A DNA stretch of 64,000 nucleotides. Source: a virus. This document shows, one piece after another, positions 7,652-62,032 of the stretch. The first letter of the stretch is position 1; every line of letters starts with the position of its first letter. The translations under genes and the position numbers were made by a program. Location: the IMG/VR virus record IMGVR_UViG_3300049811_000081, positions 46,305-110,304 of that record, one strand, 5' to 3'. The notes under the pieces are model-generated. The model searched no databases. It was not told the origin of the DNA and saw nothing but the letters and a program-made list of their open reading frames with translations.

Positions 7652-8275
7652 TTATCCGAGTGATTGATGTGTGATTATTCCTTTTTCAACATGAAAATTC
7701 AGCCTTTCTCTGTTAAGGTCTGCGGTTCCCAAATATTTAACACCGTCTTGAACCATAATTCGGAAGTCAACATCATAGGTGTTTAATATTCTTGTGAGAT
7801 CCTTAATTTTTTTCCCAACATGATTTTCACTAATTAGTTGAAACCTTTTAAAATTTTTAAAATCATCATTGGTTTTCTTGATGTCTTCTCCACCATATTT
7901 TAATTTTAGTTCTTCATACAATTTCCTTTCATTCTCTTCAATTGTTCTTTTCTTTTTTTCCGCAGCTTCTTTCCTTTTTTTCTTTAGTTCATTTTCTTTT
8001 TTTATTCTGGTGTTGTATTCATCGTCGGTTTCTTCTTTATAACAAACCAATCTAATTTCGTATTCATCAAATGAACGCGTATGCTCAACCTCTATTTTTT
8101 TATAATCTTCTATTGGTGTTAATTTGTTCTTAAAATAATTTTCATGTTCGGTGATCGCTTTCGCAATGGTTTGTCTTAGATTGGTTAATCTTTCGATAAT
8201 GAGATCCACATCACCACTTAAAATGTCATCAATATAGACATTTGGCGCGTCTTTTATTTCAATCAGTTTCTTCAT
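7652..8275 (-). CDS. Coiled-coil protein with C-terminal I78/potato-inhibitor-I-like domain
   Basis: ETDDEYNTRI plus charged coil; C-terminal VGKKI...FRIMVQDG...GTADLNRERLNFHVEKGIIT matches the T-x-D-x-x-x-x-R-L-N inhibitor loop pattern. Confidence 0.55.
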   Translation of the reverse strand: MKKLIEIKDAPNVYIDDILSGDVDLIIERLTNLRQTIAKAITEHENYFKNKLTPIEDYKKIEVEHTRSFDEYEIRLVCYKEETDDEYNTRIKKENELKKKRKEAAEKKKRTIEENERKLYEELKLKYGGEDIKKTNDDFKNFKRFQLISENHVGKKIKDLTRILNTYDVDFRIMVQDGVKYLGTADLNRERLNFHVEKGIITHQSLG

Positions 8276-9611
8276 TTTTTTTATTTCTTTTATATAAACT
8301 ATTACCCGCCATTATACAACCATAAGGAACAATTTCATCCTCTATGATCGCTAATTTATATTTGGTGATCTGATTTTTCACTTGTTCCGCATTTTTGTAT
8401 GCGGAAGGTAATTCAGATAAGTCAGGATTATCAAAATAAAATCTGACATCTAACCCCTTAGTTTCTTCTTCAATATTGATTTCCTTTTTAAGGAACTTAC
8501 TTCTGGATAAATTACGTCCAGCACCATGAGGAGCAAACCCCAATGGATTTTCGGGGTGATTAGATACCACCAATACAGGTTGTGACATGTTTAATGGTAT
8601 TAACCTTAATCCTGTATTGTTGTCAGGTATCATATCCATCATTGGTGTCGATCCCTTTGCATGATAAAATAAATTGTCTTGTTTAAAAACAAAATTATGT
8701 TCGTTCCAAAAATGGAGATCAGAAACATATTTTACTTTTTCACGTATTCCAAAGTGTAAAACTTCGTGGTTAAGTTTTGTCCATTCTCTCACAATTTGCA
8801 ACGCTTCCCAATATTCAACACCATCTTCGGTATCGTATGGGATCCAGGCATTAATAGAAGGTAGAGATGGGCACAATCTTTTTCTCCACTTTTCAGCACA
8901 CATCATCCCTGCTTTATATAACTCAGCCCCCAACCCCCTACTACCGTGATGCGTCACTAAACAGGTTTCACCCGTACTCTTAGACGTTCCAACAAATGAA
9001 AAGTGGTTTCCATCCCCTTGGGTTCCGAGATGGGTAATGGCCATAGCTTTCGCCTTATCACTAAAAAACCTATTTTTATTAATTCGGTCTAATAACTCTT
9101 TAGGGGGAACAAATTTATGTGGCGCCTTTCTTTTACCAGCACCAAAATCGGTTAACCTATGAACAATATCCAATATTCTTTTAGGATCGTTACTACCATA
9201 TCCTGTTATCATAACCGAACAACATATGTCGGCACTATGCATCGCGGGATGAATGGCGTTATCGGTAATAACAACACCACCTACAGGGATGTGTCCAATA
9301 GGACCGGCAGGGCATGCGTCTGGCATGATTGCACCCTTATAAACGGTTGGTGTTTTCATCACAACATCCATCGTTTCTTCTACCGAAATAAGGTTCACCA
9401 ATTCTTCCTCAGATTCAGCATCTATGAACTTATCATAAGTTAATGCCTCTTCCTTTGGTACTAACACATTATACTTAGGTATGAAGAGTTCGATGATCTC
9501 TTTTACATTATCAGAGTTTATCGCGTCAGGATGGTCATTGAAGTATTCAATGACCTCCCCAAACCATGCTGCTGGTTTATACCCCATCGCTATCAAATCC
9601 TTTCCTGTCAT
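8259..9611 (-). CDS. rtcB: RtcB-family RNA ligase
   Basis: MPDAC, SADICC, GTQGDGNHF, THHGSRG, NEHNF, HAKG, HGAGR, ELPSAYK motifs. Confidence 0.93.
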   Translation of the reverse strand: MTGKDLIAMGYKPAAWFGEVIEYFNDHPDAINSDNVKEIIELFIPKYNVLVPKEEALTYDKFIDAESEEELVNLISVEETMDVVMKTPTVYKGAIMPDACPAGPIGHIPVGGVVITDNAIHPAMHSADICCSVMITGYGSNDPKRILDIVHRLTDFGAGKRKAPHKFVPPKELLDRINKNRFFSDKAKAMAITHLGTQGDGNHFSFVGTSKSTGETCLVTHHGSRGLGAELYKAGMMCAEKWRKRLCPSLPSINAWIPYDTEDGVEYWEALQIVREWTKLNHEVLHFGIREKVKYVSDLHFWNEHNFVFKQDNLFYHAKGSTPMMDMIPDNNTGLRLIPLNMSQPVLVVSNHPENPLGFAPHGAGRNLSRSKFLKKEINIEEETKGLDVRFYFDNPDLSELPSAYKNAEQVKNQITKYKLAIIEDEIVPYGCIMAGNSLYKRNKKNEETD

Positions 9612-9612
9612 T

Positions 9613-10200
9613 TTATTTCATTTTTCTAAAAGACGACTTTAAATCAAATCCGTGTGATTGGATTTTTTCTTTATCAGTCATGTTATTTTCAATATTATCT
9701 TTTGGGGATAACCAGTCAGATAATTTAAGATAGATTTCTTGCGGAGACATTTGCCTATTAAACCCAATCTTATCCAATTGGGGAAACGGGTAAATTCGAT
9801 CATGTACCTGTAATAAAATAGGGATGTTATATTTCTCGTTGAAATTAGTTTTTCTCGGACCGAGATATACATTCATATAACTACTATTAAGACCTCCATC
9901 TTTAATAATAACATATTTCTCGTTTGTTCTATAATGGTTTTTAACATCCATAATTTTTTCCAACTCTTGACACCAGAAAGTTTTATTTTCTTTGTGTAAA
10001 TAAACTCCACCATATGAAATACCACACAGGTGTAATGTCAGACCATAATTAAAATGTGATGATAACATGTGGGTATCAAATTTGAAAATAGGATATTCAT
10101 ACGTCCCCGAATATCTTCTATCGAGCACAATTTTATCATCTACCCCATAGACCCCAGAGAGGTAATCATAGTAGTCTTTATATTTTGAAATAATTTTCAT
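9613..10200 (-). CDS. Conserved phage hypothetical protein
   Basis: MKIISKYKDYYDY N-terminus and KIQSHGFDLKSSFRK C-terminus. Confidence 0.65.
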   Translation of the reverse strand: MKIISKYKDYYDYLSGVYGVDDKIVLDRRYSGTYEYPIFKFDTHMLSSHFNYGLTLHLCGISYGGVYLHKENKTFWCQELEKIMDVKNHYRTNEKYVIIKDGGLNSSYMNVYLGPRKTNFNEKYNIPILLQVHDRIYPFPQLDKIGFNRQMSPQEIYLKLSDWLSPKDNIENNMTDKEKIQSHGFDLKSSFRKMK

Positions 10201-10670
10201 CTCAGTTCATGTTTTAATAAGGTCAATACCCAACCCAACAAATTCTGTCCTCTCCAATTTTTAGGGTCTTTAATGAGTTCATTATCTTCCCTCAATCCAA
10301 TACCCCATATTCTATCATATGGAGACGCCTCAACCAATATCTTGTCACCAGTTGCAAGTAGTGTCTCTTTTAGTTTCGGGTTCTGTGTGAATTTTTCATA
10401 ATTTCCTTTGTAAACTATTTGAAAATTCTTTTCTCCCCATATTTTTTCATCGAAATTTTTAACTCTCCGACCGAGCATTTTTTGAACTTTCGGATCTTTA
10501 CTTTGCATAATGAGGTCAGCCATCTCACTATCACCAAAAATAATAGATTTCCTATACATCATGTATTGTTCACAACATTTGAATTTCAATCCCTCAGTTT
10601 CAAATTCTGATGGATACCATTGCGAGAATGGACCATTCCAAAAAAATTCATATTTCTGATTTGAATTCAT
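10197..10670 (-). CDS. NADAR (YbiA-like) family N-glycosidase
   Basis: FSQWY, EQYMM, KMLGRRV, KFTQNPKL, LVEASPYDRIWGIG, GQNLLG. Confidence 0.93.
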   Translation of the reverse strand: MNSNQKYEFFWNGPFSQWYPSEFETEGLKFKCCEQYMMYRKSIIFGDSEMADLIMQSKDPKVQKMLGRRVKNFDEKIWGEKNFQIVYKGNYEKFTQNPKLKETLLATGDKILVEASPYDRIWGIGLREDNELIKDPKNWRGQNLLGWVLTLLKHELR

Positions 10671-10842: not shown

Positions 10843-11114
10843 ATGATTAAATATGACCCCGTTACCGTTTCTCCATCCCAACCAAGATCTTCATCGATTT
10901 CACACAATGTCGTTTGTTTAAAAGACCACCCTTCCTCCCAAGAGATTTCACCGTCCTCACTACCAACCTTTATGATACCATCCTTAATTTGACCTACAAT
11001 CACTTTAAGGGGTATTGAGCCAGCAAGCATTCTGGTAACGACATCACCCACTTTTATTTCTTTCCCCACATTACGGTTAACCACAATTTCAGCCAATTTT
11101 ATATCCCTTTTCAT
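10839..11114 (-). CDS. Hypothetical protein
   Basis: 91-aa ORF overlapping neighbours. Confidence 0.6.
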   Translation of the reverse strand: MKRDIKLAEIVVNRNVGKEIKVGDVVTRMLAGSIPLKVIVGQIKDGIIKVGSEDGEISWEEGWSFKQTTLCEIDEDLGWDGETVTGSYLII

Positions 11115-11292
11115 ACTTACGTTTTACACGTTTGATGAACAATCTATTTTTATCCATGACGTAAAATCGTTTGTGTATTTTACCATCACCCATCCCATCA
11201 CGCAAAATAGAAATTATTCTATTATAAAGTTCAAGTCTATAAGACTTTATTCTTAAAAACTTCGGTTTTTTTCTATTTGTTAGATACCCCAT
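11089..11292 (-). CDS. Small basic hypothetical protein
   Basis: 67-aa ORF overlapping neighbours. Confidence 0.45.
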   Translation of the reverse strand: MGYLTNRKKPKFLRIKSYRLELYNRIISILRDGMGDGKIHKRFYVMDKNRLFIKRVKRKYEKGYKIG

Positions 11293-11764
11293 TATTTTTG
11301 ATCATTTCAATCAACTCTTCCTTGGTTTTCTCTTTTAGAGTATCAACAGATAAATCACCCGTTAACCTTATTTCACTAATTTCGGATTTGATTTTTTCCC
11401 TCAGTAACGATGTGAGTTCATATGGGATTTGTTTACTGGAACTATCTGACGTAATAAATTCACCAACAGCTCCGCCAGCAACAATAATCAACGCATCTTT
11501 TTTAGTGGGGATGAAAATATACCCCATCCATGATATAAAGGAAAAGATTGTGAACCATATAAAAAGTTTTCTAAAATTCGTTCCCCAATACTGTACTGAT
11601 TGTTTCTCCTTATCGGTGGGTCTTTCTGACATGGACATATGTGTAAGCACATAGACAACAAATGAGACAATACAAAGAATTGTAAACGCATTTGACGTAA
11701 AATCAAAAAAACGTTTAACGTTGTCAGCAACTGAAATCCAATAAAAAATCTGATACCAATTCAT
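11273..11764 (-). CDS. Membrane protein
   Basis: Start at MNWYQIF; two to three TM segments; FIPTKKDALIIVAGG. Confidence 0.65.
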   Translation of the reverse strand: MNWYQIFYWISVADNVKRFFDFTSNAFTILCIVSFVVYVLTHMSMSERPTDKEKQSVQYWGTNFRKLFIWFTIFSFISWMGYIFIPTKKDALIIVAGGAVGEFITSDSSSKQIPYELTSLLREKIKSEISEIRLTGDLSVDTLKEKTKEELIEMIKNNGVSNK

Positions 11765-11787
11765 AATATTTGTTTTTATGTAAAAAA

Positions 11788-12225
11788 TTAAATACACATT
11801 TGTTTCAGTTCTTCCCAAGTCGGTTTAGTTCCTTCCGGAACAAAAAATTCCCAACCATTATCAAAGATTTCTCTTTGTGTAAATACCCAATTGGGATCGG
11901 TATCGTCAACATATTTTAAAACGGGTTTATTGTCAACCATGTGAAGATACCCACTATCAAATTTTCCCCCATCAGATTGAAAATGATCACAGGTTGAGGA
12001 TTGTGCCAAATATTCGTATTCTGAATTATTCGGATTTTTTTCAACCAACTCTAAATATTTTCTCTTCGCATCATACCAATCCTTTACGAAATTTCCAGAC
12101 TTAAATGAAGTTGTTTTACCTCCGTGAAATAAACTCACACCACGATATACCATATCGTTTGATATGACATTTCCATCATCGTCATAATTGTTCCCACCCT
12201 CGTAATTGATCGATATTACTGCCAT
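11788..12225 (-). CDS. Hypothetical protein immediately downstream of the structured RNA
   Basis: Start at MAVISINY (ATG 12225). Confidence 0.6.
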   Translation of the reverse strand: MAVISINYEGGNNYDDDGNVISNDMVYRGVSLFHGGKTTSFKSGNFVKDWYDAKRKYLELVEKNPNNSEYEYLAQSSTCDHFQSDGGKFDSGYLHMVDNKPVLKYVDDTDPNWVFTQREIFDNGWEFFVPEGTKPTWEELKQMCI

Positions 12226-12242
12226 GATATTTTTTTTAAAAA

Positions 12243-12450
12243 TCAAGATAACAACCGCCTTCTAAGTAGGATACTGTTTTAAGGCTGGTTTGCTAGGAAA
12301 TAGCGTCCATAATTTAAGTGCTTTCACTTACCTATCAGTACATTAATCTGAACCACTCACATCTTAGAACTGTGAGGTAATAATTGGGACTCAAACCCAC
12401 ATAGTAACTAGCTTATATTACTGTTTAGTATTAATCGGTTGTTATCTCAA
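12243..12450 (-). ncRNA. Unannotated ~205-nt structured RNA (closed multi-way junction with a T-loop-like arm)
   Basis: Perfect 12-bp terminal inverted repeat (12246-12257 / 12436-12447), extended by G-U pairs only on the minus strand; abutting internal helices; no long ORF; consensus promoter just upstream. Confidence 0.72.
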
Positions 12451-12462
12451 AGAACTTGAATA

Positions 12463-12494
12463 CAAAGATAAAACATTTATATCAATAAACCAAA
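12463..12494 (-). promoter_or_regulatory. Consensus Bacteroidota primary-sigma promoter TTTG-N20-TATCTTTG
   Basis: Exact -33/-7 consensus and spacing; points into the structured RNA. Confidence 0.8.
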
Positions 12495-12501
12495 TTTATT
12501 T

Positions 12502-12696
12502 TTAGAAAATTCTGTCAATCAAAAGGTAACCCAAAAAAATTGATATCGAGAAATATATGATTACTGTCTGAAATTTACTCATTGGGGTTGCCCAATATGT
12601 GTCCTTTAAAAAATTAGGTTCAAAAAGTATATATACTCCTCTCAATAAATAGGAGATCGAACCTAACGCAAAAATGACATTTATTAAGATATTCAT
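12502..12696 (-). CDS. Small two-TM membrane protein (possible immunity partner of upstream lipoprotein)
   Basis: MNILINVIFALGSISYLLRG...IIYFSISIFLGYLLIDRIF. Confidence 0.6.
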   Translation of the reverse strand: MNILINVIFALGSISYLLRGVYILFEPNFLKDTYWATPMSKFQTVIIYFSISIFLGYLLIDRIF

Positions 12697-12709
12697 AATG
12701 ATAGATTTT

Positions 12710-13300
12710 TTAATCCCACCATTCGAGACAATCTCCGACTTCATATATCATAATCCCAACAGTAATTACCCCAGCAACCCTTCTACCGATTAATTTCAAC
12801 GCACCAATAACTGTTCTTTTAGTTGCACCAGCAACAATGGATTCGTATATACTTTGTATCTCCGTAATTCCAATAAGTGTTCCAACCGCAGTTAGAAAAC
12901 AACCGAAATCGTCAATGTCTTTCCTAATGGTTAAATCATTGGTTGTGGTTGGTTTTGTTCTTTGATTATACTTTTCATGTAATCCAAGGAAAACCCCAAC
13001 CATAATAACACCTTCGGGATCATCAATATAGTCATTCGTTAAATCAATCCCTTCTGTGTCTTTTACATAGGATCCGATTTTATTTGCCAAATCGATAAAA
13101 ACCTCTTTAGCAAACTCCTTATCCTTATCCATTATGATCTCCTGTAAATCCAATTTTTTGTCATCAAAAATATCCTTGATCGATGTGTGAGTGTTTTTTG
13201 ACAACTCCAACTTCCAAGGATTTTTGACTTCAATTTCTTCGTTCTTTTTACAAGAAGAAAATAATGTCAACATCAAAACAAAAACAATCAAATTTTTCAT
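12710..13300 (-). CDS. Lipoprotein with amphipathic, Cys-bracketed C-terminal domain
   Basis: MKNLIVFVLMLTLFSS-C-KKNEE lipobox; C-terminal CFLTAVG...YEVGDCLEWWD. Confidence 0.75.
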   Translation of the reverse strand: MKNLIVFVLMLTLFSSCKKNEEIEVKNPWKLELSKNTHTSIKDIFDDKKLDLQEIIMDKDKEFAKEVFIDLANKIGSYVKDTEGIDLTNDYIDDPEGVIMVGVFLGLHEKYNQRTKPTTTNDLTIRKDIDDFGCFLTAVGTLIGITEIQSIYESIVAGATKRTVIGALKLIGRRVAGVITVGIMIYEVGDCLEWWD

Positions 13301-13376
13301 AATAAAATTTTGTGGTTTCTCCTACCTTCAGATTATACTCTGTGTCGGAATTTCAGTAAGTTTTCATAATAAAGGA

Positions 13377-13640
13377 TTAAATATTATCCAATATCTCTTT
13401 CATAACTTCTTTTTTCGGTTTTGTCGTCATATAGGTTTTCATAACCATTGACATCTCAACAAACTTATTAATCATGTACCTTTCTTCGGTTTCATAATTA
13501 AACTTTTTCAATGCATCCTCCAAAGGTATTTCTTTAACAAGATAGTCTGAGTGTTTAAACATGATCTTATCCTTTGTGATATCATAACGCAAAGACATCA
13601 CTTCCCCACGATTGTTTCTGTATGTGATTTTAAATTCCAT
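13377..13640 (-). CDS. Hypothetical protein
   Basis: 87-aa ORF downstream of consensus promoter. Confidence 0.6.
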   Translation of the reverse strand: MEFKITYRNNRGEVMSLRYDITKDKIMFKHSDYLVKEIPLEDALKKFNYETEERYMINKFVEMSMVMKTYMTTKPKKEVMKEILDNI

Positions 13641-13655
13641 ATATAAAATTATTCA

Positions 13656-13686
13656 CAAATATAATGTGTTTTTTCGAATATCCAAA
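13656..13686 (-). promoter_or_regulatory. Consensus Bacteroidota promoter TTTG-N19-TATATTTG
   Basis: Exact consensus 15 nt upstream of ATG 13640. Confidence 0.75.
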
Positions 13687-16882: not shown

Positions 16883-16913
16883 GGATATAAAATTTTAATT
16901 TTGGAAATTACGA

Positions 16914-16943
16914 TAAAGATATACAAAAAATAAACCCCACAAA
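16914..16943 (-). promoter_or_regulatory. Host-type promoter variant TTTG-N18-TATCTTTA overlapping the upstream terminator
   Basis: Upstream of ATG 16882. Confidence 0.45.
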
Positions 16944-16958
16944 AATTTTTGCGGGGTT
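16925..16958 (-). terminator. Intrinsic terminator
   Basis: AACCCCGC-loop-GTGGGGTT followed by TATTTTTT on the minus strand. Confidence 0.7.
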
Positions 16959-16980
16959 AAAATAAAATGGTTTGGTAATT

Positions 16981-17181
16981 TTATTTTCGTTCTATGACTT
17001 CATTTGTGTCAATGTCAATTATGTAATGTGTGCCGTTTCTATCCACCCCAACAACATACCTACCGTTTTCGTTTCCGTCGCTCGGAGTAACTGATGTTGT
17101 CTCGTCTTGATTTATTTCGTTTACGATTTCGGTAACTATTTTTTCTAAATCCGATTCTTTTAATTTAATAATCTTTTTCAT
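16981..17181 (-). CDS. Small probable head-internal protein
   Basis: MKKIIKLKESDLEKIVTEIVNE leader; ATATTTAT 5 nt upstream. Confidence 0.65.
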   Translation of the reverse strand: MKKIIKLKESDLEKIVTEIVNEINQDETTSVTPSDGNENGRYVVGVDRNGTHYIIDIDTNEVIERK

Positions 17182-17199
17182 ATCTAATAAATATCCCCA

Positions 17200-19325: not shown

Positions 19326-20801
19326 TTACGAAACGTTTGATGGTTTATTTTTATTTGCCGCCAAAATCTCTTGCGAGTACCTGTTTATTTGAGATACCAA
19401 TCTTCTTAAATTAAACTCGTATCTTGGGTCGGACGCGTATCTACTATTATTTTTGTTAACAAATTTATTAATTAAATCAGATGCCGTTCTTCCCTTTGTG
19501 ATGTAGTTACGAGCCATTAAATTATAATATGCATCAATACCACTTTGAACATTTGGGTGATTTGAAACCTTACCACTATCAACATTACCCACATTGAACG
19601 GATTTTTAGTCCTAATTGGTTTGGCGTTTACGTTTTGAGAAAACCCACCTTCCTGTGCAAGTTGTGCTAACGCCAATTCAGGTGGTACGTATTTACCGAA
19701 CTGATCAAAAACTTTTTTAGCGGAATATGCTAACATAGAACCCGTTATTTTTAAGGGATTTGAAGGTCTTGTTTTAATAAACCTATCCGCAATATCTGAA
19801 TATAGCTTAACCCCAATTTGGTTACTTAGGTCTAAATCTGTGAACAATTTACCACCCCCGCTGGTTACAGGACTATCAACCAATTTTTTTAAATCTTCGG
19901 GTTTAACATTTTTTTGTTCCAATTTGGTTTTTATGGTCTCAACTACTTTTGGTGTCACGACTGATTTTGTACTATCGGTATTGGTTTTGGGTGAACTTAC
20001 ATTCATTTGACCACTAGATTTATTAATATATCTCAACGGATCAACCAACTTACCATTTAATTTGAGTTCAAAATGAACGTGAGCTCCCGTTGATCTTCCT
20101 CTTCCAACATCACCTCTATCACCACCACTTAAACCAATTATATCGCCTTGTTTAATTGTTTGACCGGTAGTTACATTGATTTTTTTACAATGACAATACC
20201 TACTTGTAAATCCATTTGGATGTTCAATTTGGATAGTTCCTCCACATCCGGTATTTTTAATTGCAGCAACTAAAACTTTACCATCCGCCGGGGATTTAAT
20301 TTCTGTTCCAGATGGTGCAGCAATATCGATACCGGGATGTTTGTGATCAGTTCTTCTTGCTCCGAATTTGCTTGTTATTCTTGTTACATCCACCGGAGCG
20401 ATGAGCGTCACCTCACCTTCGTTTATATCAACCTCTTCCTCTATTGTTGTTTCGTCGTTGGTTAAATTATTATCGTCTTTGAATTTTTCCACCGCTTGTG
20501 CGGTTTCAGGACCATATAACCCATCGACACCATGAACTGGTAAATCATACCCCAATAATTCCAACCCCATTTGAACCGTTTCAACATCTTTTTGATATTC
20601 CATATCACCCTTTTGTTGTTGAAACAAGGGTTGGTCAATATTGTCTAAATTTTGGAAAAATTGATTTACATCAGTACCGACTAAGTCTGCCTTTTTAGGG
20701 TCATCAACCTTTTGTTGCTCTGTTGACTGTTCGTTAACGACCTTTTTATCCGAAAAAAGATATTTAATTCTACTTAATTGTTCATTAAGATTTCTTCTCA
20801 T
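19326..20801 (-). CDS. Multidomain peptidoglycan hydrolase: PG-binding + M23 peptidase + glucosaminidase/lysozyme-like domain
   Basis: GVDGLYGPETAQAVEKF (PG-binding); HPGID and HVH (M23); PELALAQLAQEGG, NPFNVG, YASDPRY (lysozyme-like). Confidence 0.88.
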   Translation of the reverse strand: MRRNLNEQLSRIKYLFSDKKVVNEQSTEQQKVDDPKKADLVGTDVNQFFQNLDNIDQPLFQQQKGDMEYQKDVETVQMGLELLGYDLPVHGVDGLYGPETAQAVEKFKDDNNLTNDETTIEEEVDINEGEVTLIAPVDVTRITSKFGARRTDHKHPGIDIAAPSGTEIKSPADGKVLVAAIKNTGCGGTIQIEHPNGFTSRYCHCKKINVTTGQTIKQGDIIGLSGGDRGDVGRGRSTGAHVHFELKLNGKLVDPLRYINKSSGQMNVSSPKTNTDSTKSVVTPKVVETIKTKLEQKNVKPEDLKKLVDSPVTSGGGKLFTDLDLSNQIGVKLYSDIADRFIKTRPSNPLKITGSMLAYSAKKVFDQFGKYVPPELALAQLAQEGGFSQNVNAKPIRTKNPFNVGNVDSGKVSNHPNVQSGIDAYYNLMARNYITKGRTASDLINKFVNKNNSRYASDPRYEFNLRRLVSQINRYSQEILAANKNKPSNVS

Positions 20802-20830
20802 ATTTATATAAATATCAGAAAAAATGTTGT

Positions 20831-21013
20831 TTATTCGTCGGTGGATTTATTCTTACCTTTTATTTTTTCGAGTAGGGTTCTCTCTCTAGATTTTACGATT
20901 TTTTCGTCACTTTCATCGTGTTGCTCACTTCTTGTGATCCAGTAGTAAAGTTTTTTTTGGAGTTGGTGAAGCTTGTGGTACAGTTTTCCTTTATCAAGTT
21001 TTTTGTTACTCAT
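20831..21013 (-). CDS. Small hypothetical protein
   Basis: 60-aa ORF. Confidence 0.5.
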   Translation of the reverse strand: MSNKKLDKGKLYHKLHQLQKKLYYWITRSEQHDESDEKIVKSRERTLLEKIKGKNKSTDE

Positions 21014-21122
21014 TTTTGTTGTTTAATAGTTATACTTTATTTTTTCCAAAATTCCCACCATTTGGGTTCTTTATTTGGTTTAAGATTATGTGACACATTA
21101 AAATATAACAAAACTTTTTATA

Positions 21123-28531: not shown

Positions 28532-28605
28532 TGATTTTATATTTTTATTTAACTATATTTTTATTATTAAAATAATAAACTAAAATATTTATAAAAAAAA
28601 ATACT

Positions 28606-28755
28606 ATGAGTTGTGGATGCAAGGGTAAAAAACCCGCTGAACAAACAAATACAGTAAATAATCCAGTAAACATTAGTGTAAAGGTTAACGAAACTCAAAC
28701 AGGTCAGTCAACCAATACTAATACTACTGATAAAAAAGATAACACAAATTCTTAA
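28606..28755 (+). CDS. 49-aa MSCGCK micro-protein (not in track)
   Basis: MSCGCKGKKPAEQTNT...; ATATTTAT at 28585-28592 upstream. Confidence 0.6.
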   Translation: MSCGCKGKKPAEQTNTVNNPVNISVKVNETQTGQSTNTNTTDKKDNTNS

Positions 28756-28819
28756 TTAAATAACATCAAAATTTGATCGGGTTTTCTATTTTATATATTT
28801 ATATATAAAATATATAACA

Positions 28820-29020
28820 ATGCAAGAAGATTTAACGAAACTAACGAGTGTAAAAATAATTAGAAAAAATTATTTTGATTTTAAGAAAGCAACTGCCCAT
28901 ACAAATATCACGTTACAAAAATTTGTAAACAGGGCACTGGACTTGTACCTAACAAACACAGAATTTAAGGAAAAAGTGGATGGTCACGAAACAAGTGGAG
29001 TTAAAAACTCAAAATATTGA
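28820..29020 (+). CDS. Small ribbon-helix-helix-like protein heading the glycan cluster
   Basis: KLTSVKI...FKK...TLQKFVNRALDLYL; ATATTTAT at 28795-28802. Confidence 0.6.
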   Translation: MQEDLTKLTSVKIIRKNYFDFKKATAHTNITLQKFVNRALDLYLTNTEFKEKVDGHETSGVKNSKY

Positions 29021-29023
29021 TTA

Positions 29024-30397
29024 ATGAAGAAAAAAATATTGTTATTATGTGACGATCTTAGATTGGTCTCAGGTGTAGCCACAATGGCCAAGGAGATTGT
29101 TTATGGTACCGTTCATAAGTACGATTGGGTTCAACTTGGAGCAGCAATAAAAAACCCAGATTATGGTAAAATAGTTGATTTAAACGAAGAAGTTAGAAAA
29201 GAAACGGGGGTACCTGACGCTAATGTCAAAATAATTCCTAATAACGACTACGGTAACATATTTCTTCTTAGAAATCTCATAAAAGAAGAAAAACCAGACG
29301 CTATATTACACTTTACCGATCCACATTTTTGGGAATGGTTATATAACAACGAAAATGAAATAAGACAACAAATACCTATTTTATTTTATCATGTTTGGGA
29401 TAGTCTACCAAATCCCCAATATAATAGAAACTATTATGAAAGTTGTGATTGGATAGGTTGTATCTCAAGACAAACATATGGTATCGTCAATAACGTTGGA
29501 AAAAGAACGGATTTCAAAACATTTAAACCATTAGAAGATTGGCAAATAGATTATGTTCCACATGGGGTAAATCCAAATGTTTTTAAACCTCTTGAGGAAA
29601 TTAATAAAGACATAAGAAAAACCGTATTTAATGGCAGTGAATTTGATTTCGTTATATTCTACAATAGTAGAAATATCAGAAGAAAACAACCATCGGATAT
29701 CATTTATTCATTTAAGTTGTTTTGTGATCAATTACCCAAAGAACGAGCTGATAGGTGTTTATTATTGATGAGAACCGAATCTGTTGACGAAAACGGTACT
29801 GATTTAGTTAGGGTATCCGAAGATCTGGCACCAAACTGTAAAATACATTTTTTGGATGTTAGAATAAGTCAAAGTGAATTGAATGAACTATATAACATCG
29901 CAGATTGTACCGTGAATATTTCCAATAATGAGGGATTTGGTATTTCAACAATTGAAAGTTTAATGGCTGGAACTCCCATAATTGTTAATGTAACTGGAGG
30001 TCTACAAGACCAATGTGGGTTTAATATTGATGGTAAAGAATTTACCGAAAAAGATTATATCGATATTGGATCATTACATAATAAAGAGAAATGGTCTCAT
30101 ATCGATCATGGTAATTGGTGTATTCCGATTTGGTCGGTTTCACAAACAATTAATGGGTCCCCGATGACCCCATATATCTTTGAAGATAGGATTAATCATG
30201 ATGATGTGTCAGATACATTTATGCAAATGTACCTATTAGGTAGAGATAGACGAAAAAAAATGGGTTTAGAGGGTAGAGATTGGGTGATGAAAAACTTTTC
30301 CTCAAGTGTAATGTGTGAAAAAATGATAAACGGAATTGAGACCGCGTTTAATAAATTCAAAAAGAAAGAAAAATATAGATTATACAAAATCATATGA
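29024..30397 (+). CDS. GT4-like glycosyltransferase
   Basis: SGVATMAK, NSRNIRRKQ, LYNIAD...SNNEGFGISTIESLMAGTPII. Confidence 0.9.
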   Translation: MKKKILLLCDDLRLVSGVATMAKEIVYGTVHKYDWVQLGAAIKNPDYGKIVDLNEEVRKETGVPDANVKIIPNNDYGNIFLLRNLIKEEKPDAILHFTDPHFWEWLYNNENEIRQQIPILFYHVWDSLPNPQYNRNYYESCDWIGCISRQTYGIVNNVGKRTDFKTFKPLEDWQIDYVPHGVNPNVFKPLEEINKDIRKTVFNGSEFDFVIFYNSRNIRRKQPSDIIYSFKLFCDQLPKERADRCLLLMRTESVDENGTDLVRVSEDLAPNCKIHFLDVRISQSELNELYNIADCTVNISNNEGFGISTIESLMAGTPIIVNVTGGLQDQCGFNIDGKEFTEKDYIDIGSLHNKEKWSHIDHGNWCIPIWSVSQTINGSPMTPYIFEDRINHDDVSDTFMQMYLLGRDRRKKMGLEGRDWVMKNFSSSVMCEKMINGIETAFNKFKKKEKYRLYKII

Positions 30398-61044: not shown

Positions 61045-61237
61045 AACCAAAAATGATTTTTAATTTATCAAAAAAAGATTTTTTTTCTTTCTCTCTTTCC
61101 TTAAACATTTCGGATTTATCTATTTTTTTGATTTCATCGATCATCCTCTTTTTCTCCAATAAAATTTGTTCCTGATCTTTCTTCTTCTCCCTCTCCAACC
61201 AATTCAAGGCTATCTGTATCGACCTGTTTATATCCAT
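61028..61237 (-). CDS. Hypothetical charged protein
   Basis: 69-aa ORF. Confidence 0.55.
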   Translation of the reverse strand: MDINRSIQIALNWLEREKKKDQEQILLEKKRMIDEIKKIDKSEMFKEREKEKKSFFDKLKIIFGYGKEG

Positions 61238-61628
61238 TTTCTGTTATTTTATCCTGAGTATTATCTAAAGCACGCATTTGAAAAAAATTTTTCAGTTTAT
61301 CTAAAGATTGTTGTTTAAATAACTCCTCCAGTTCTTTCACTTTTTCTTTAAATAAACGTTGTTTTTCCTCTTCTTCTTTATTATGGACAATAATATCTAG
61401 AGCAGCTTCAAACACCGAATTATACCCATCTTCTGACGAAACTGAGACTATGGATAAGAGACTTAATCTATCGTTCTTATCCTGAATTTTGCATTTTATG
61501 TTGTTGTACTTATTGACAATTTTTTCAAATTGCCAAGTATTTGGCAATTTAAGATCTAAGCTGACGTTATTTTCAATTTCTCTTAGAGAATGAAAATGTG
61601 GTTTTAATTTAAATATTAATTCGTACAC
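61134..61628 (-). CDS. Hypothetical coiled-coil protein
   Basis: 164-aa ORF, NKEEEEKQRLFKEKVKEL. Confidence 0.6.
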   Translation of the reverse strand: MYELIFKLKPHFHSLREIENNVSLDLKLPNTWQFEKIVNKYNNIKCKIQDKNDRLSLLSIVSVSSEDGYNSVFEAALDIIVHNKEEEEKQRLFKEKVKELEELFKQQSLDKLKNFFQMRALDNTQDKITENGYKQVDTDSLELVGEGEEERSGTNFIGEKEDDR

Positions 61629-61630
61629 AA

Positions 61631-61801
61631 TTATATAATTAAATAAGTTAAAAAATATGATATTGCCAGATACAAAAATACCGCATCTAATGCATCAATC
61701 TTAATTTGTTTTGGTTCTCGTTGGAGAAGTTTAAAAATAAACTCAAACAAATATCTTGCTATGTAAAGAGAGCTTAAAATAAAAATAAATAAGGGTATCA
61801 T
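61631..61801 (-). CDS. 56-aa two-TM protein (not in track)
   Basis: MIPLFIFILSSLYIARYLF...AVFLYLAISYFLTYLII; ATGA overlap upstream. Confidence 0.55.
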   Translation of the reverse strand: MIPLFIFILSSLYIARYLFEFIFKLLQREPKQIKIDALDAVFLYLAISYFLTYLII

Positions 61802-61992
61802 TTTTCTTCTATTTTTTCGTGTCTTTTCATTTCATCCAGAATTTCTTTCCTATATGTTCCAATTAATAGTTTTACTTCTTGGGCATATTTTCTTGCTCTA
61901 ATGGATGCGCTTCTATTTCCTTTTGAATAGACCTTTTGTGTGTCCATAGACATCTTCTCAACCAGGTCTTTAATTTTATTCAAGGTTTCCAT
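61798..61992 (-). CDS. Histone H1-like (Hc1-family) nucleoid protein
   Basis: KGNRSASIRARKYAQEVK...YRK resembles the GNKAAGTRARK motif of short Bacteroidota Hc1-like proteins. Confidence 0.78.
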   Translation of the reverse strand: METLNKIKDLVEKMSMDTQKVYSKGNRSASIRARKYAQEVKLLIGTYRKEILDEMKRHEKIEEK

Positions 61993-62032
61993 AATTTTTT
62001 CTGATTTTTAATATTAGTATAAGTAAAAAAAT

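Follow-up and report, generated by a model that had tools for sequence, protein, structure and literature searches.

On the minus strand of the stretch of viral DNA analysed here (64,000 nucleotides; hereafter the window) lies a gene of about 185–210 bases, which we regard, with moderate confidence, as specifying a stable, processed and trans-acting phage RNA of an uncatalogued, phage-only family. The fold of this RNA is conserved and specific to one strand, the family is found in and beside tRNA gene arrays as well as away from them, and the RNA is present in RNA libraries; action in trans is suggested by its stability, conservation and setting. At least 24 members have been collected, nine in metagenome contigs and 15 in viral contigs. 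The RNA family is new; the newness concerns the family and not a mechanism. An earlier note on this DNA had proposed a structured, non-coding RNA on the minus strand, and that proposal is borne out: the helices covary, RNA-library contigs lie over the gene, and the strand is indicated by G–U pairs that fit one strand only and by a direction shared with neighbouring tRNA genes in other members.

Locus, transcript and flanking signals

The window belongs to a 110-kb IMG/VR virus record with a G+C content of 32%, and the DNA of the stretch is found in wetland metagenomes. Since the record is about 33% complete, the phage genome should be roughly 300 kb in length. The RNA gene occupies an ORF-free gap (Table 1) in which the longest ORF is at most 21 aa; the description of this gap as one of the largest non-coding gaps holds, as it is sixth by size in the window. 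Bigger gaps, which lack an ATG-started ORF of at least 70 aa, lie at 61045–62032, 28532–29023, 20802–21122 and 16883–17199, and none of these four contains an Rfam family at the gathering score; the first encloses a GTG-started ORF of 164 aa (61134–61628). The window also carries a glycosyltransferase gene cluster at 29024–49474 (GT1/GT4, GT9 and an FkbM methyltransferase fusion) and an M23 peptidase–glucosaminidase gene at 19326–20801.

Table 1. Window coordinates of the RNA gene, of its structural elements and of the features around it.
Feature	Position	Strand	Remarks
ORF-free gap	12226–12501		276 nt; RNA on minus strand
80-aa ORF	12502–12744	minus	5′ of gap
145-aa ORF	11788–12225	minus	3′ of gap
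RNA gene of uncatalogued family	12244–12449	minus	about 185–210 bases
Promoter-like site, Bacteroidota type	12463–12494	minus	−33 TTTG 12494–12491; −7 TATCTTTG 12470–12463
boxA-like word GUUCUUUGA	12447–12455	minus	overlaps start of P1
P1, terminal stem	12449–12436 with 12257–12244	minus	14 pairs; pair probability ~1
P2, 5′ strand	12435–12423	minus	AUUAAU 12435–12430, bulged A 12429, CUAAAC 12428–12423
P2, 3′ strand	12342–12353	minus	12-bp helix with P2 5′ strand
P3	12421–12416 with 12382–12377	minus	closes variable arm 1 (12377–12421)
P4 hairpin	12376–12371 with 12361–12356	minus	loop with UCUAAG 12368–12363
P5	12341–12336 with 12276–12271	minus	closes variable arm 2 (12271–12341)
P6 mini-hairpin	12270–12268 with 12260–12258	minus	7-nt loop with CUUAGA 12266–12261
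Loop–loop pairing UCUAAG/CUUAGA	12368–12363 with 12266–12261	minus	six pairs
Stretch under RNA-library contigs	12254–12438		X5 12254–12435; X6 12277–12436; X7 12283–12438

The three RNA-library contigs X5, X6 and X7 are identical to the window and come from three metatranscriptome runs of three studies, one contig each; this support consists of contigs and not of reads, and DNA can occur in RNA libraries. All three stop at 12435–12438 without a loose end, and a DNA contig continues to 12503, which is a weak hint that the 5′ end of the RNA lies at the P1/P2 border. A fourth RNA contig of 220 nt, from the same run as one of the three, represents a diverged relative: it matches 12418–12436 exactly and 12339–12380 with four differences, has 67 nt in place of 37 nt between the matched parts, and is dissimilar beyond 12339. 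It keeps the core of the RNA and differs in both arms, and it ends 3 nt past the P1/P2 border. The flanking genes (11500–13400) are without contig cover in the three RNA libraries, which is no evidence of their absence, and no joints of a circular form were found in the RNA-library contigs, which cannot exclude one.

Upstream of the RNA, the pattern TTTG-N20-TATCTTTG reported in the earlier note is present exactly, and by this pattern the site is promoter-like and may well act as a promoter. The pattern is not enriched in the window (9 sites vs 6.5 expected). A TTTGG-N18/19-TAnnTTTG layout stands before other genes of the phage, for example at 13656–13686, and the member at locus L046 has TAATTTTG in the same place as the −7 box; the promoter type TTTGG-N18/19-TAnnTTTG would point to a host among the Bacteroidota. 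In several relatives of the locus that carry the 145-aa gene (L002, L009–L011, L013, L020 and L021), another promoter-like motif is seen just upstream of that gene, which consists of TTTTTTAT, 2–3 nt, CCG, 11 nt and TAYATTTG.

The boxA-like word at the start of P1 conforms to GYTCTTTRA, which occurs in nine of 22 members at between 7 nt before and 4 nt inside P1, where 0.05 would be expected from the frequency of the word in the same loci; it has no occurrence at P1 in the other 13. There are four occurrences of GYTCTTTRA in the window, and only the one at P1 is both intergenic and on the transcribed strand. In the rRNA leader of one Flavobacteriaceae genome (Kordia) a one-mismatch version, AGTTCATTGACA, follows a TAnnTTTG promoter. 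The boxA of rRNA operons recruits Nus factors; these are believed to anchor the leader so that the leader–trailer helix can form as soon as the trailer has been transcribed (PMC10250234). Nus factors might similarly bind the boxA-like word described here. At the other end, P1 encloses a domain of 180 nt and is then followed, in this copy, only by five U (12242–12238); a U-rich tail after P1 is found in most members. P1 together with the U-rich tail could serve as a terminator, and a scan of 11000–13500 for an intrinsic terminator, namely a G+C-rich small-loop hairpin with a U run, gave none.

Downstream on the same strand lie genes for an RtcB RNA ligase (8259–9611, Pfam E = 3e-29) and for a NADAR domain protein (10197–10670, Pfam E = 1e-53). 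Of the two enzymes that had been named as downstream neighbours, RtcB is upheld by Pfam; the SpoU methylase is not, as 7652–8275 and 9613–10200 are without a Pfam match. Pfam likewise gives nothing for the ORFs at 12502–13300, on the upstream side of the RNA promoter. Single-protein searches with the 145-aa, 196-aa and RtcB proteins gave no syntenic relatives in viral contigs.

Judged from this one sequence, the case for a structured RNA is weak, because the folding score is modest, the inner helices are not fixed, long inverted repeats are common and both Rfam and ARAGORN are silent. Against dinucleotide shuffles the folding z-score is −2.86, with one of 200 shuffles as good, so that the comparison with shuffled controls called for in the earlier note lends modest support. 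The terminal stem is the sole thermodynamically fixed helix of the single-sequence fold. All base pairs listed in the earlier note exist in the sequence; the inner helices among them have pair probabilities of 0–0.3, and the fold that they compose lies 6 kcal/mol above the minimum-energy fold. Inverted repeats of 12 nt or longer within 300 nt number 52 pairs in this AT-rich window.

Family members and their conserved fold

Members of the family were collected by pattern scans. The scan of metagenome contigs used a conserved 18-mer, taken from the diverged RNA-library contig, and gave nine true homologues in addition to an unrelated repeat and a few chance matches, while a pattern based on the central hairpin gave 15 more members in viral contigs. 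The unrelated repeat, which accounts for 40 of the metagenome matches, is AT-rich and multi-copy (L040, L042, L049, L051, L059 and others; contigs Ga0214923 and Ga0114964) and often forms inverted pairs 70–290 nt apart; that it contains the exact 18-mer of the RNA 5′ core is most likely a coincidence. The members are 157–296 nt in length; in nhmmer searches each locus, like this genome, has a single copy, at E-values between 1e-37 and 1e-18. The present copy has every core element, with a single A–C mismatch in P2, and scores 118.6 bits (E = 1e-34) against the family profile in nhmmer, a score that is partly circular since this copy is among the 20 rows of the profile. GenBank phages gave no blastn match for the region or for the member at L091, and among the representative genomes of 185,579 prokaryote species there were nine pattern matches, all of them chance matches in coding DNA; the distribution of the family is phage-only. 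A truncated variant, found at L046:3382–3486 and L087:336–440, keeps the 5′ strand of P1 together with P2, P3 and P4, is without the CUUAGA loop and the 3′ strand of P1, and is preceded by a TAATTTTG −7 box and a boxA-like word.

The fold is carried by covariation, for which the earlier note had asked among homologues. When 20 members are aligned with MAFFT, standard pairs make up 93.4% of cells, compared with 33–45% when partners are slid; compensatory changes, in which both partners differ, affect 31 of the 53 pairs, and not one of five measures is attained by any of 500 shuffles. RNAalifold returns P1, P2, P3, P4 and P6 from the alignment alone. The terminal stem P1, already recognised in the earlier note, covaries in 12 of its 14 pairs (98.8% of cells pair) and has a length of 10–14 pairs across the family. 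P2 pairs in 97.5% of cells, with compensatory changes from U–A to C–G and from C–G to U–A. The GUAAUA/UAUUAC helix of the earlier fold is P3, in which all six pairs show compensatory changes and which closes an arm of 35–120 nt across the members; its CUCACA/UGUGAG hairpin is P4, with three of six pairs compensatory and 98.3% paired. P5 is blurred on the alignment because of alignment errors. It has compensatory changes in five of six pairs of the MAFFT alignment, and an anchor-based test finds a helix of at least five pairs in 19 of 23 members, with a mean of 5.7 pairs vs 4.2 for mismatched partners. In the mini-hairpin P6, all three pairs show compensatory changes.

Other parts of the earlier fold are not conserved. 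The bases assigned to a UGGUU/AACCA-closed multiloop with three hairpins and to a GCCUU/AAGGC hairpin belong to P2, P5, P6 or a variable arm, and a repeated AAACAGUA is not supported by the family. The complementarity that had been noticed between the loop UUCUAAG and the 3′ end fared better: its six loop–loop pairs (Table 1) are invariant in 20 of 20 members, and the location of the 3′ partner in the loop of the covarying 3-bp hairpin P6 indicates a true loop–loop contact. Because the six pairs never vary, the contact is supported by conservation and not by covariation. A loop-independent pattern added only the partial member L116, the matches L112–L115 and L117–L119 being unrelated coding sequence. 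The most conserved part of the family is this kissing-loop core, and not the leader; the core is almost invariant and comprises 95 nt. As a geometric model, the 6-bp P4, the kissing helix of 6 bp and the 3-bp P6 could stack as one rod beside the 12-bp P2, which would give two rods tied at both ends, from whose two junctions the variable arms would exit.

Arm 1 of this copy contains a T-arm-like hairpin, UGGG-UUUGAGU-CCCA, at 12399–12385. Strict T-arm hairpins are found in four of 23 members, about ten times the 0.39 found in shuffles, and they occupy arm 1 in this copy and in L082 and arm 2 in L054 and L055. The T-arm-like arm of the earlier note is real in the present copy and absent from most of the family. 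The hairpin is a sporadic module and not part of the family core, which is without any tRNA feature.

Genomic setting and comparison with known RNAs

Members are located inside, and co-directional with, arrays of 24, 25, 22, 24 and 14 tRNA genes at L065, L091, L092, L100 and L102, respectively, and at least six further loci have a member immediately next to tRNA genes. About one third of the members, including this copy, have no tRNA gene in the DNA examined; ARAGORN finds none in the present 110-kb record, which represents about a third of the genome. Within the arrays the placement is variable, with 8–23 tRNA genes upstream of the member, which is not at the head. Phage-encoded tmRNA genes lie near a member in two loci (L092:2660–3047 and L097:1743–2143). 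In many loci (L041, L082, L088, L089, L092 and L100) a long tRNA-like gene begins 4–12 nt after the RNA; it starts with GUCAGGUGGCGGAA, has a canonical T-arm and an acceptor strand at its end, and is missed or oddly typed by ARAGORN (Asn-ATT of 85 nt, Glu-CTC of 94 nt). The RNA and this odd tRNA look like a conserved pair. The possibility that P1 is a generic processing stalk around different cargos was rejected, as its sequence frames only this RNA in the member loci.

In Rfam 15 no family reaches the gathering score in the window, and at E ≤ 10 the region 12100–12650 gives one chance snoRNA match (E = 8.9) that falls outside the RNA. In nine member loci, the matches at E ≤ 1 are to tRNA, tmRNA and other families and all fall outside the RNA. 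Neither the window nor the whole 110-kb record yields a tRNA or tmRNA with ARAGORN, the corresponding Rfam models are silent on the RNA, and the covariance models of GOLLD, ROOL and manA have no match in this copy or in nine members. The earlier note had recognised no tRNA, tmRNA, RNase P, 6S RNA or known riboswitch here, and this absence from known families stands, the Rfam and ARAGORN searches having given no match on the RNA. We found no description of the family in the literature; a large catalogue of viral candidate RNAs lists motifs of 29–151 nt, among which a fragment may occur.

The closest parallels come from other RNAs of phages. GOLLD and ROOL are phage RNAs encoded near tRNA islands that form cages, as seen by cryo-EM (PMC12286853). 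Like them, the present family is phage-encoded, often lies beside or inside tRNA islands and joins variable regions, in some cases with tRNA-like modules, to a core that is conserved; unlike them, it is encoded by a gene three to four times smaller with an unrelated sequence and fold. The manA RNA, which measures less than 200 nt, forms cages via kissing loops (bioRxiv 10.64898/2026.07.01.735769). It (RF01745) resembles our RNA in being shorter than 200 nt, phage-associated and equipped with kissing loops, but its kissing is intermolecular, whereas the geometry here also permits an intramolecular contact. Small stable RNAs among phage tRNA genes are likewise represented by species 1 and 2 of phage T4, which lie in the tRNA gene cluster and are matured with the tRNAs; this likeness is one of setting, and the family has no sequence match to GenBank phages.

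Two further comparisons extend to cellular RNAs. As in an rRNA leader, a stable RNA is enclosed by a long-range helix whose 5′ strand is immediately preceded by a boxA-like word, and tRNA genes come next in the same transcription unit; the differences are that the helix has 10–14 pairs here and at least 17 there, that the cargo is about 180 nt and that the boxA-like word is present in nine of 22 members. With YrlA and the Y RNAs the family shares a terminal stem formed by both ends, and this copy adds a T-arm-like module and a nearby RtcB gene. In rsr-yrlA-rtcBA operons, RtcB is placed beside a Y RNA. Identity with Ro-associated Y RNAs was nevertheless rejected: YrlA (RF02553) has no match at E ≤ 10, Ro60/TROVE (PF05731) has none at E ≤ 1 in the 110-kb record, which is about 33% of the genome, and the T-arm is not conserved. 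A weak YrlA-like match (32 bits, E = 0.002, below the gathering score) was observed in the phage tRNA array at L102:1174–1240.

Function of the RNA

In the reading that we favour, transcription would start at the Bacteroidota-type promoter and pass the boxA-like word, and P1 would form between the 5′ leader strand and the 3′ trailer strand, in the manner of the leader–trailer helix of an rRNA operon. P1 and the U-rich tail would then end or punctuate the transcript, which would be trimmed to an RNA of about 185 bases; with 10–14 pairs, P1 is short for a classical RNase III site. During infection the RNA would act in trans as a rigid RNA particle that may bind a conserved factor, from host or phage, of the tRNA and translation sphere, or may assemble with itself, and it would share with GOLLD and ROOL the niche of phage tRNA islands. 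In the present phage, the cassette would stand alone in the 5′ untranslated region of the 145-aa gene and would probably also dampen read-through into that gene. A more specific form of self-assembly, in which the two invariant loops kiss between molecules to build RNA-only rings or cages as in manA, ROOL and GOLLD, whose surface would show the variable arms, some of them bearing tRNA elbows, is quite unlikely in our estimation. Less likely still is a new ribozyme, formed by the invariant core, with the tRNA precursor as its substrate.

The nearest rival is a module of antitermination or processing that acts in cis. The boxA-like word would load host Nus factors, or the RNA itself would modify RNA polymerase, as do the folded RNAs HK022 put and Bacillus EAR; long untranslated tRNA operons would in this way escape Rho and hairpin terminators, P1 would be a cut site and the stable RNA a by-product. 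The boxA-like words at P1, the location of members inside or beside tRNA arrays and a layout resembling that of rRNA operons (PMC10250234) are all in keeping with such a module. We nonetheless consider it rather unlikely, since members occur anywhere in the arrays with many tRNA genes already upstream, more than half of them are without the boxA-like word, conservation peaks in the kissing-loop core and not in the leader, no tRNA gene is within reach of several members, the present copy included, and the RNA libraries hold the body of the RNA. Regulation in cis of a different kind, by a riboswitch or attenuator in the leader of the 145-aa gene, was put forward in the earlier note and is highly improbable. 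The RNA does sit between the promoter and this gene, which must for that reason be transcribed through it; only 18 nt separate P1 from the ATG, and P1 with the U run could attenuate. The 145-aa protein, however, has 262 homologues, and in all 30 related loci compared, from large phages and including 12 complete genomes of 270–435 kb, a gap of 0–70 nt separates the gene from the ORF or promoter before it, and nothing similar to the RNA lies upstream. The RNA is absent from the whole records of all 30, the 12 complete genomes included, so that here it constitutes an extra cassette between promoter and gene. Elsewhere the RNA is followed by unrelated genes or by tRNA genes, most members being in tRNA arrays, and as the function of the family a leader role is close to refuted.

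The earlier note had also suggested a tRNA-mimic decoy or sponge, whose T-arm elbow would titrate a host defence protein that cleaves or binds tRNAs, with RtcB repairing the damage. The T-arm of this copy at 12385–12399, the canonical T-arms of L054, L055 and L082 with their excess over shuffles, an arm 1 in L082 for which a cloverleaf lacking a normal anticodon loop can be drawn, and the RtcB gene at 8259–9611 would all fit such a function. The suggestion is not supported for the family and is very unlikely: 19 of 23 members have no T-arm and the rest carry it in either arm, ARAGORN and the tRNA, tmRNA and YrlA models of Rfam are silent on the RNA, the 110-kb record has no Ro/TROVE gene, and the invariant core contains nothing tRNA-like. 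Finally, the inverted ends of 12–14 nt, the patchy distribution and what looks, against the relatives, like a clean insertion between promoter and gene could be those of a miniature mobile DNA element with terminal inverted repeats that mimic an RNA stem. Such an element is barely credible, given a single copy per genome, six internal helices that covary with G–U pairs on one strand only, a constant direction relative to tRNA genes, the presence in RNA libraries and the lack of any target-site duplication seen.

A stable RNA that acts in trans, as we propose, would belong to a poorly charted part of phage biology, as in large phages long operons are given over to tRNAs and other, ill-understood RNAs. 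Because its members are compact (about 160–300 nt), share a core of 95 nt, covary and are covered in RNA libraries, the family is a tractable object for structural work by SHAPE, cryo-EM or crystallography. It opens the question of how phages use the RNAs other than tRNAs that they keep in their tRNA islands, and it suggests that phages borrow the logic of host rRNA operons, with boxA and a leader–trailer helix, for the production of stable RNAs.
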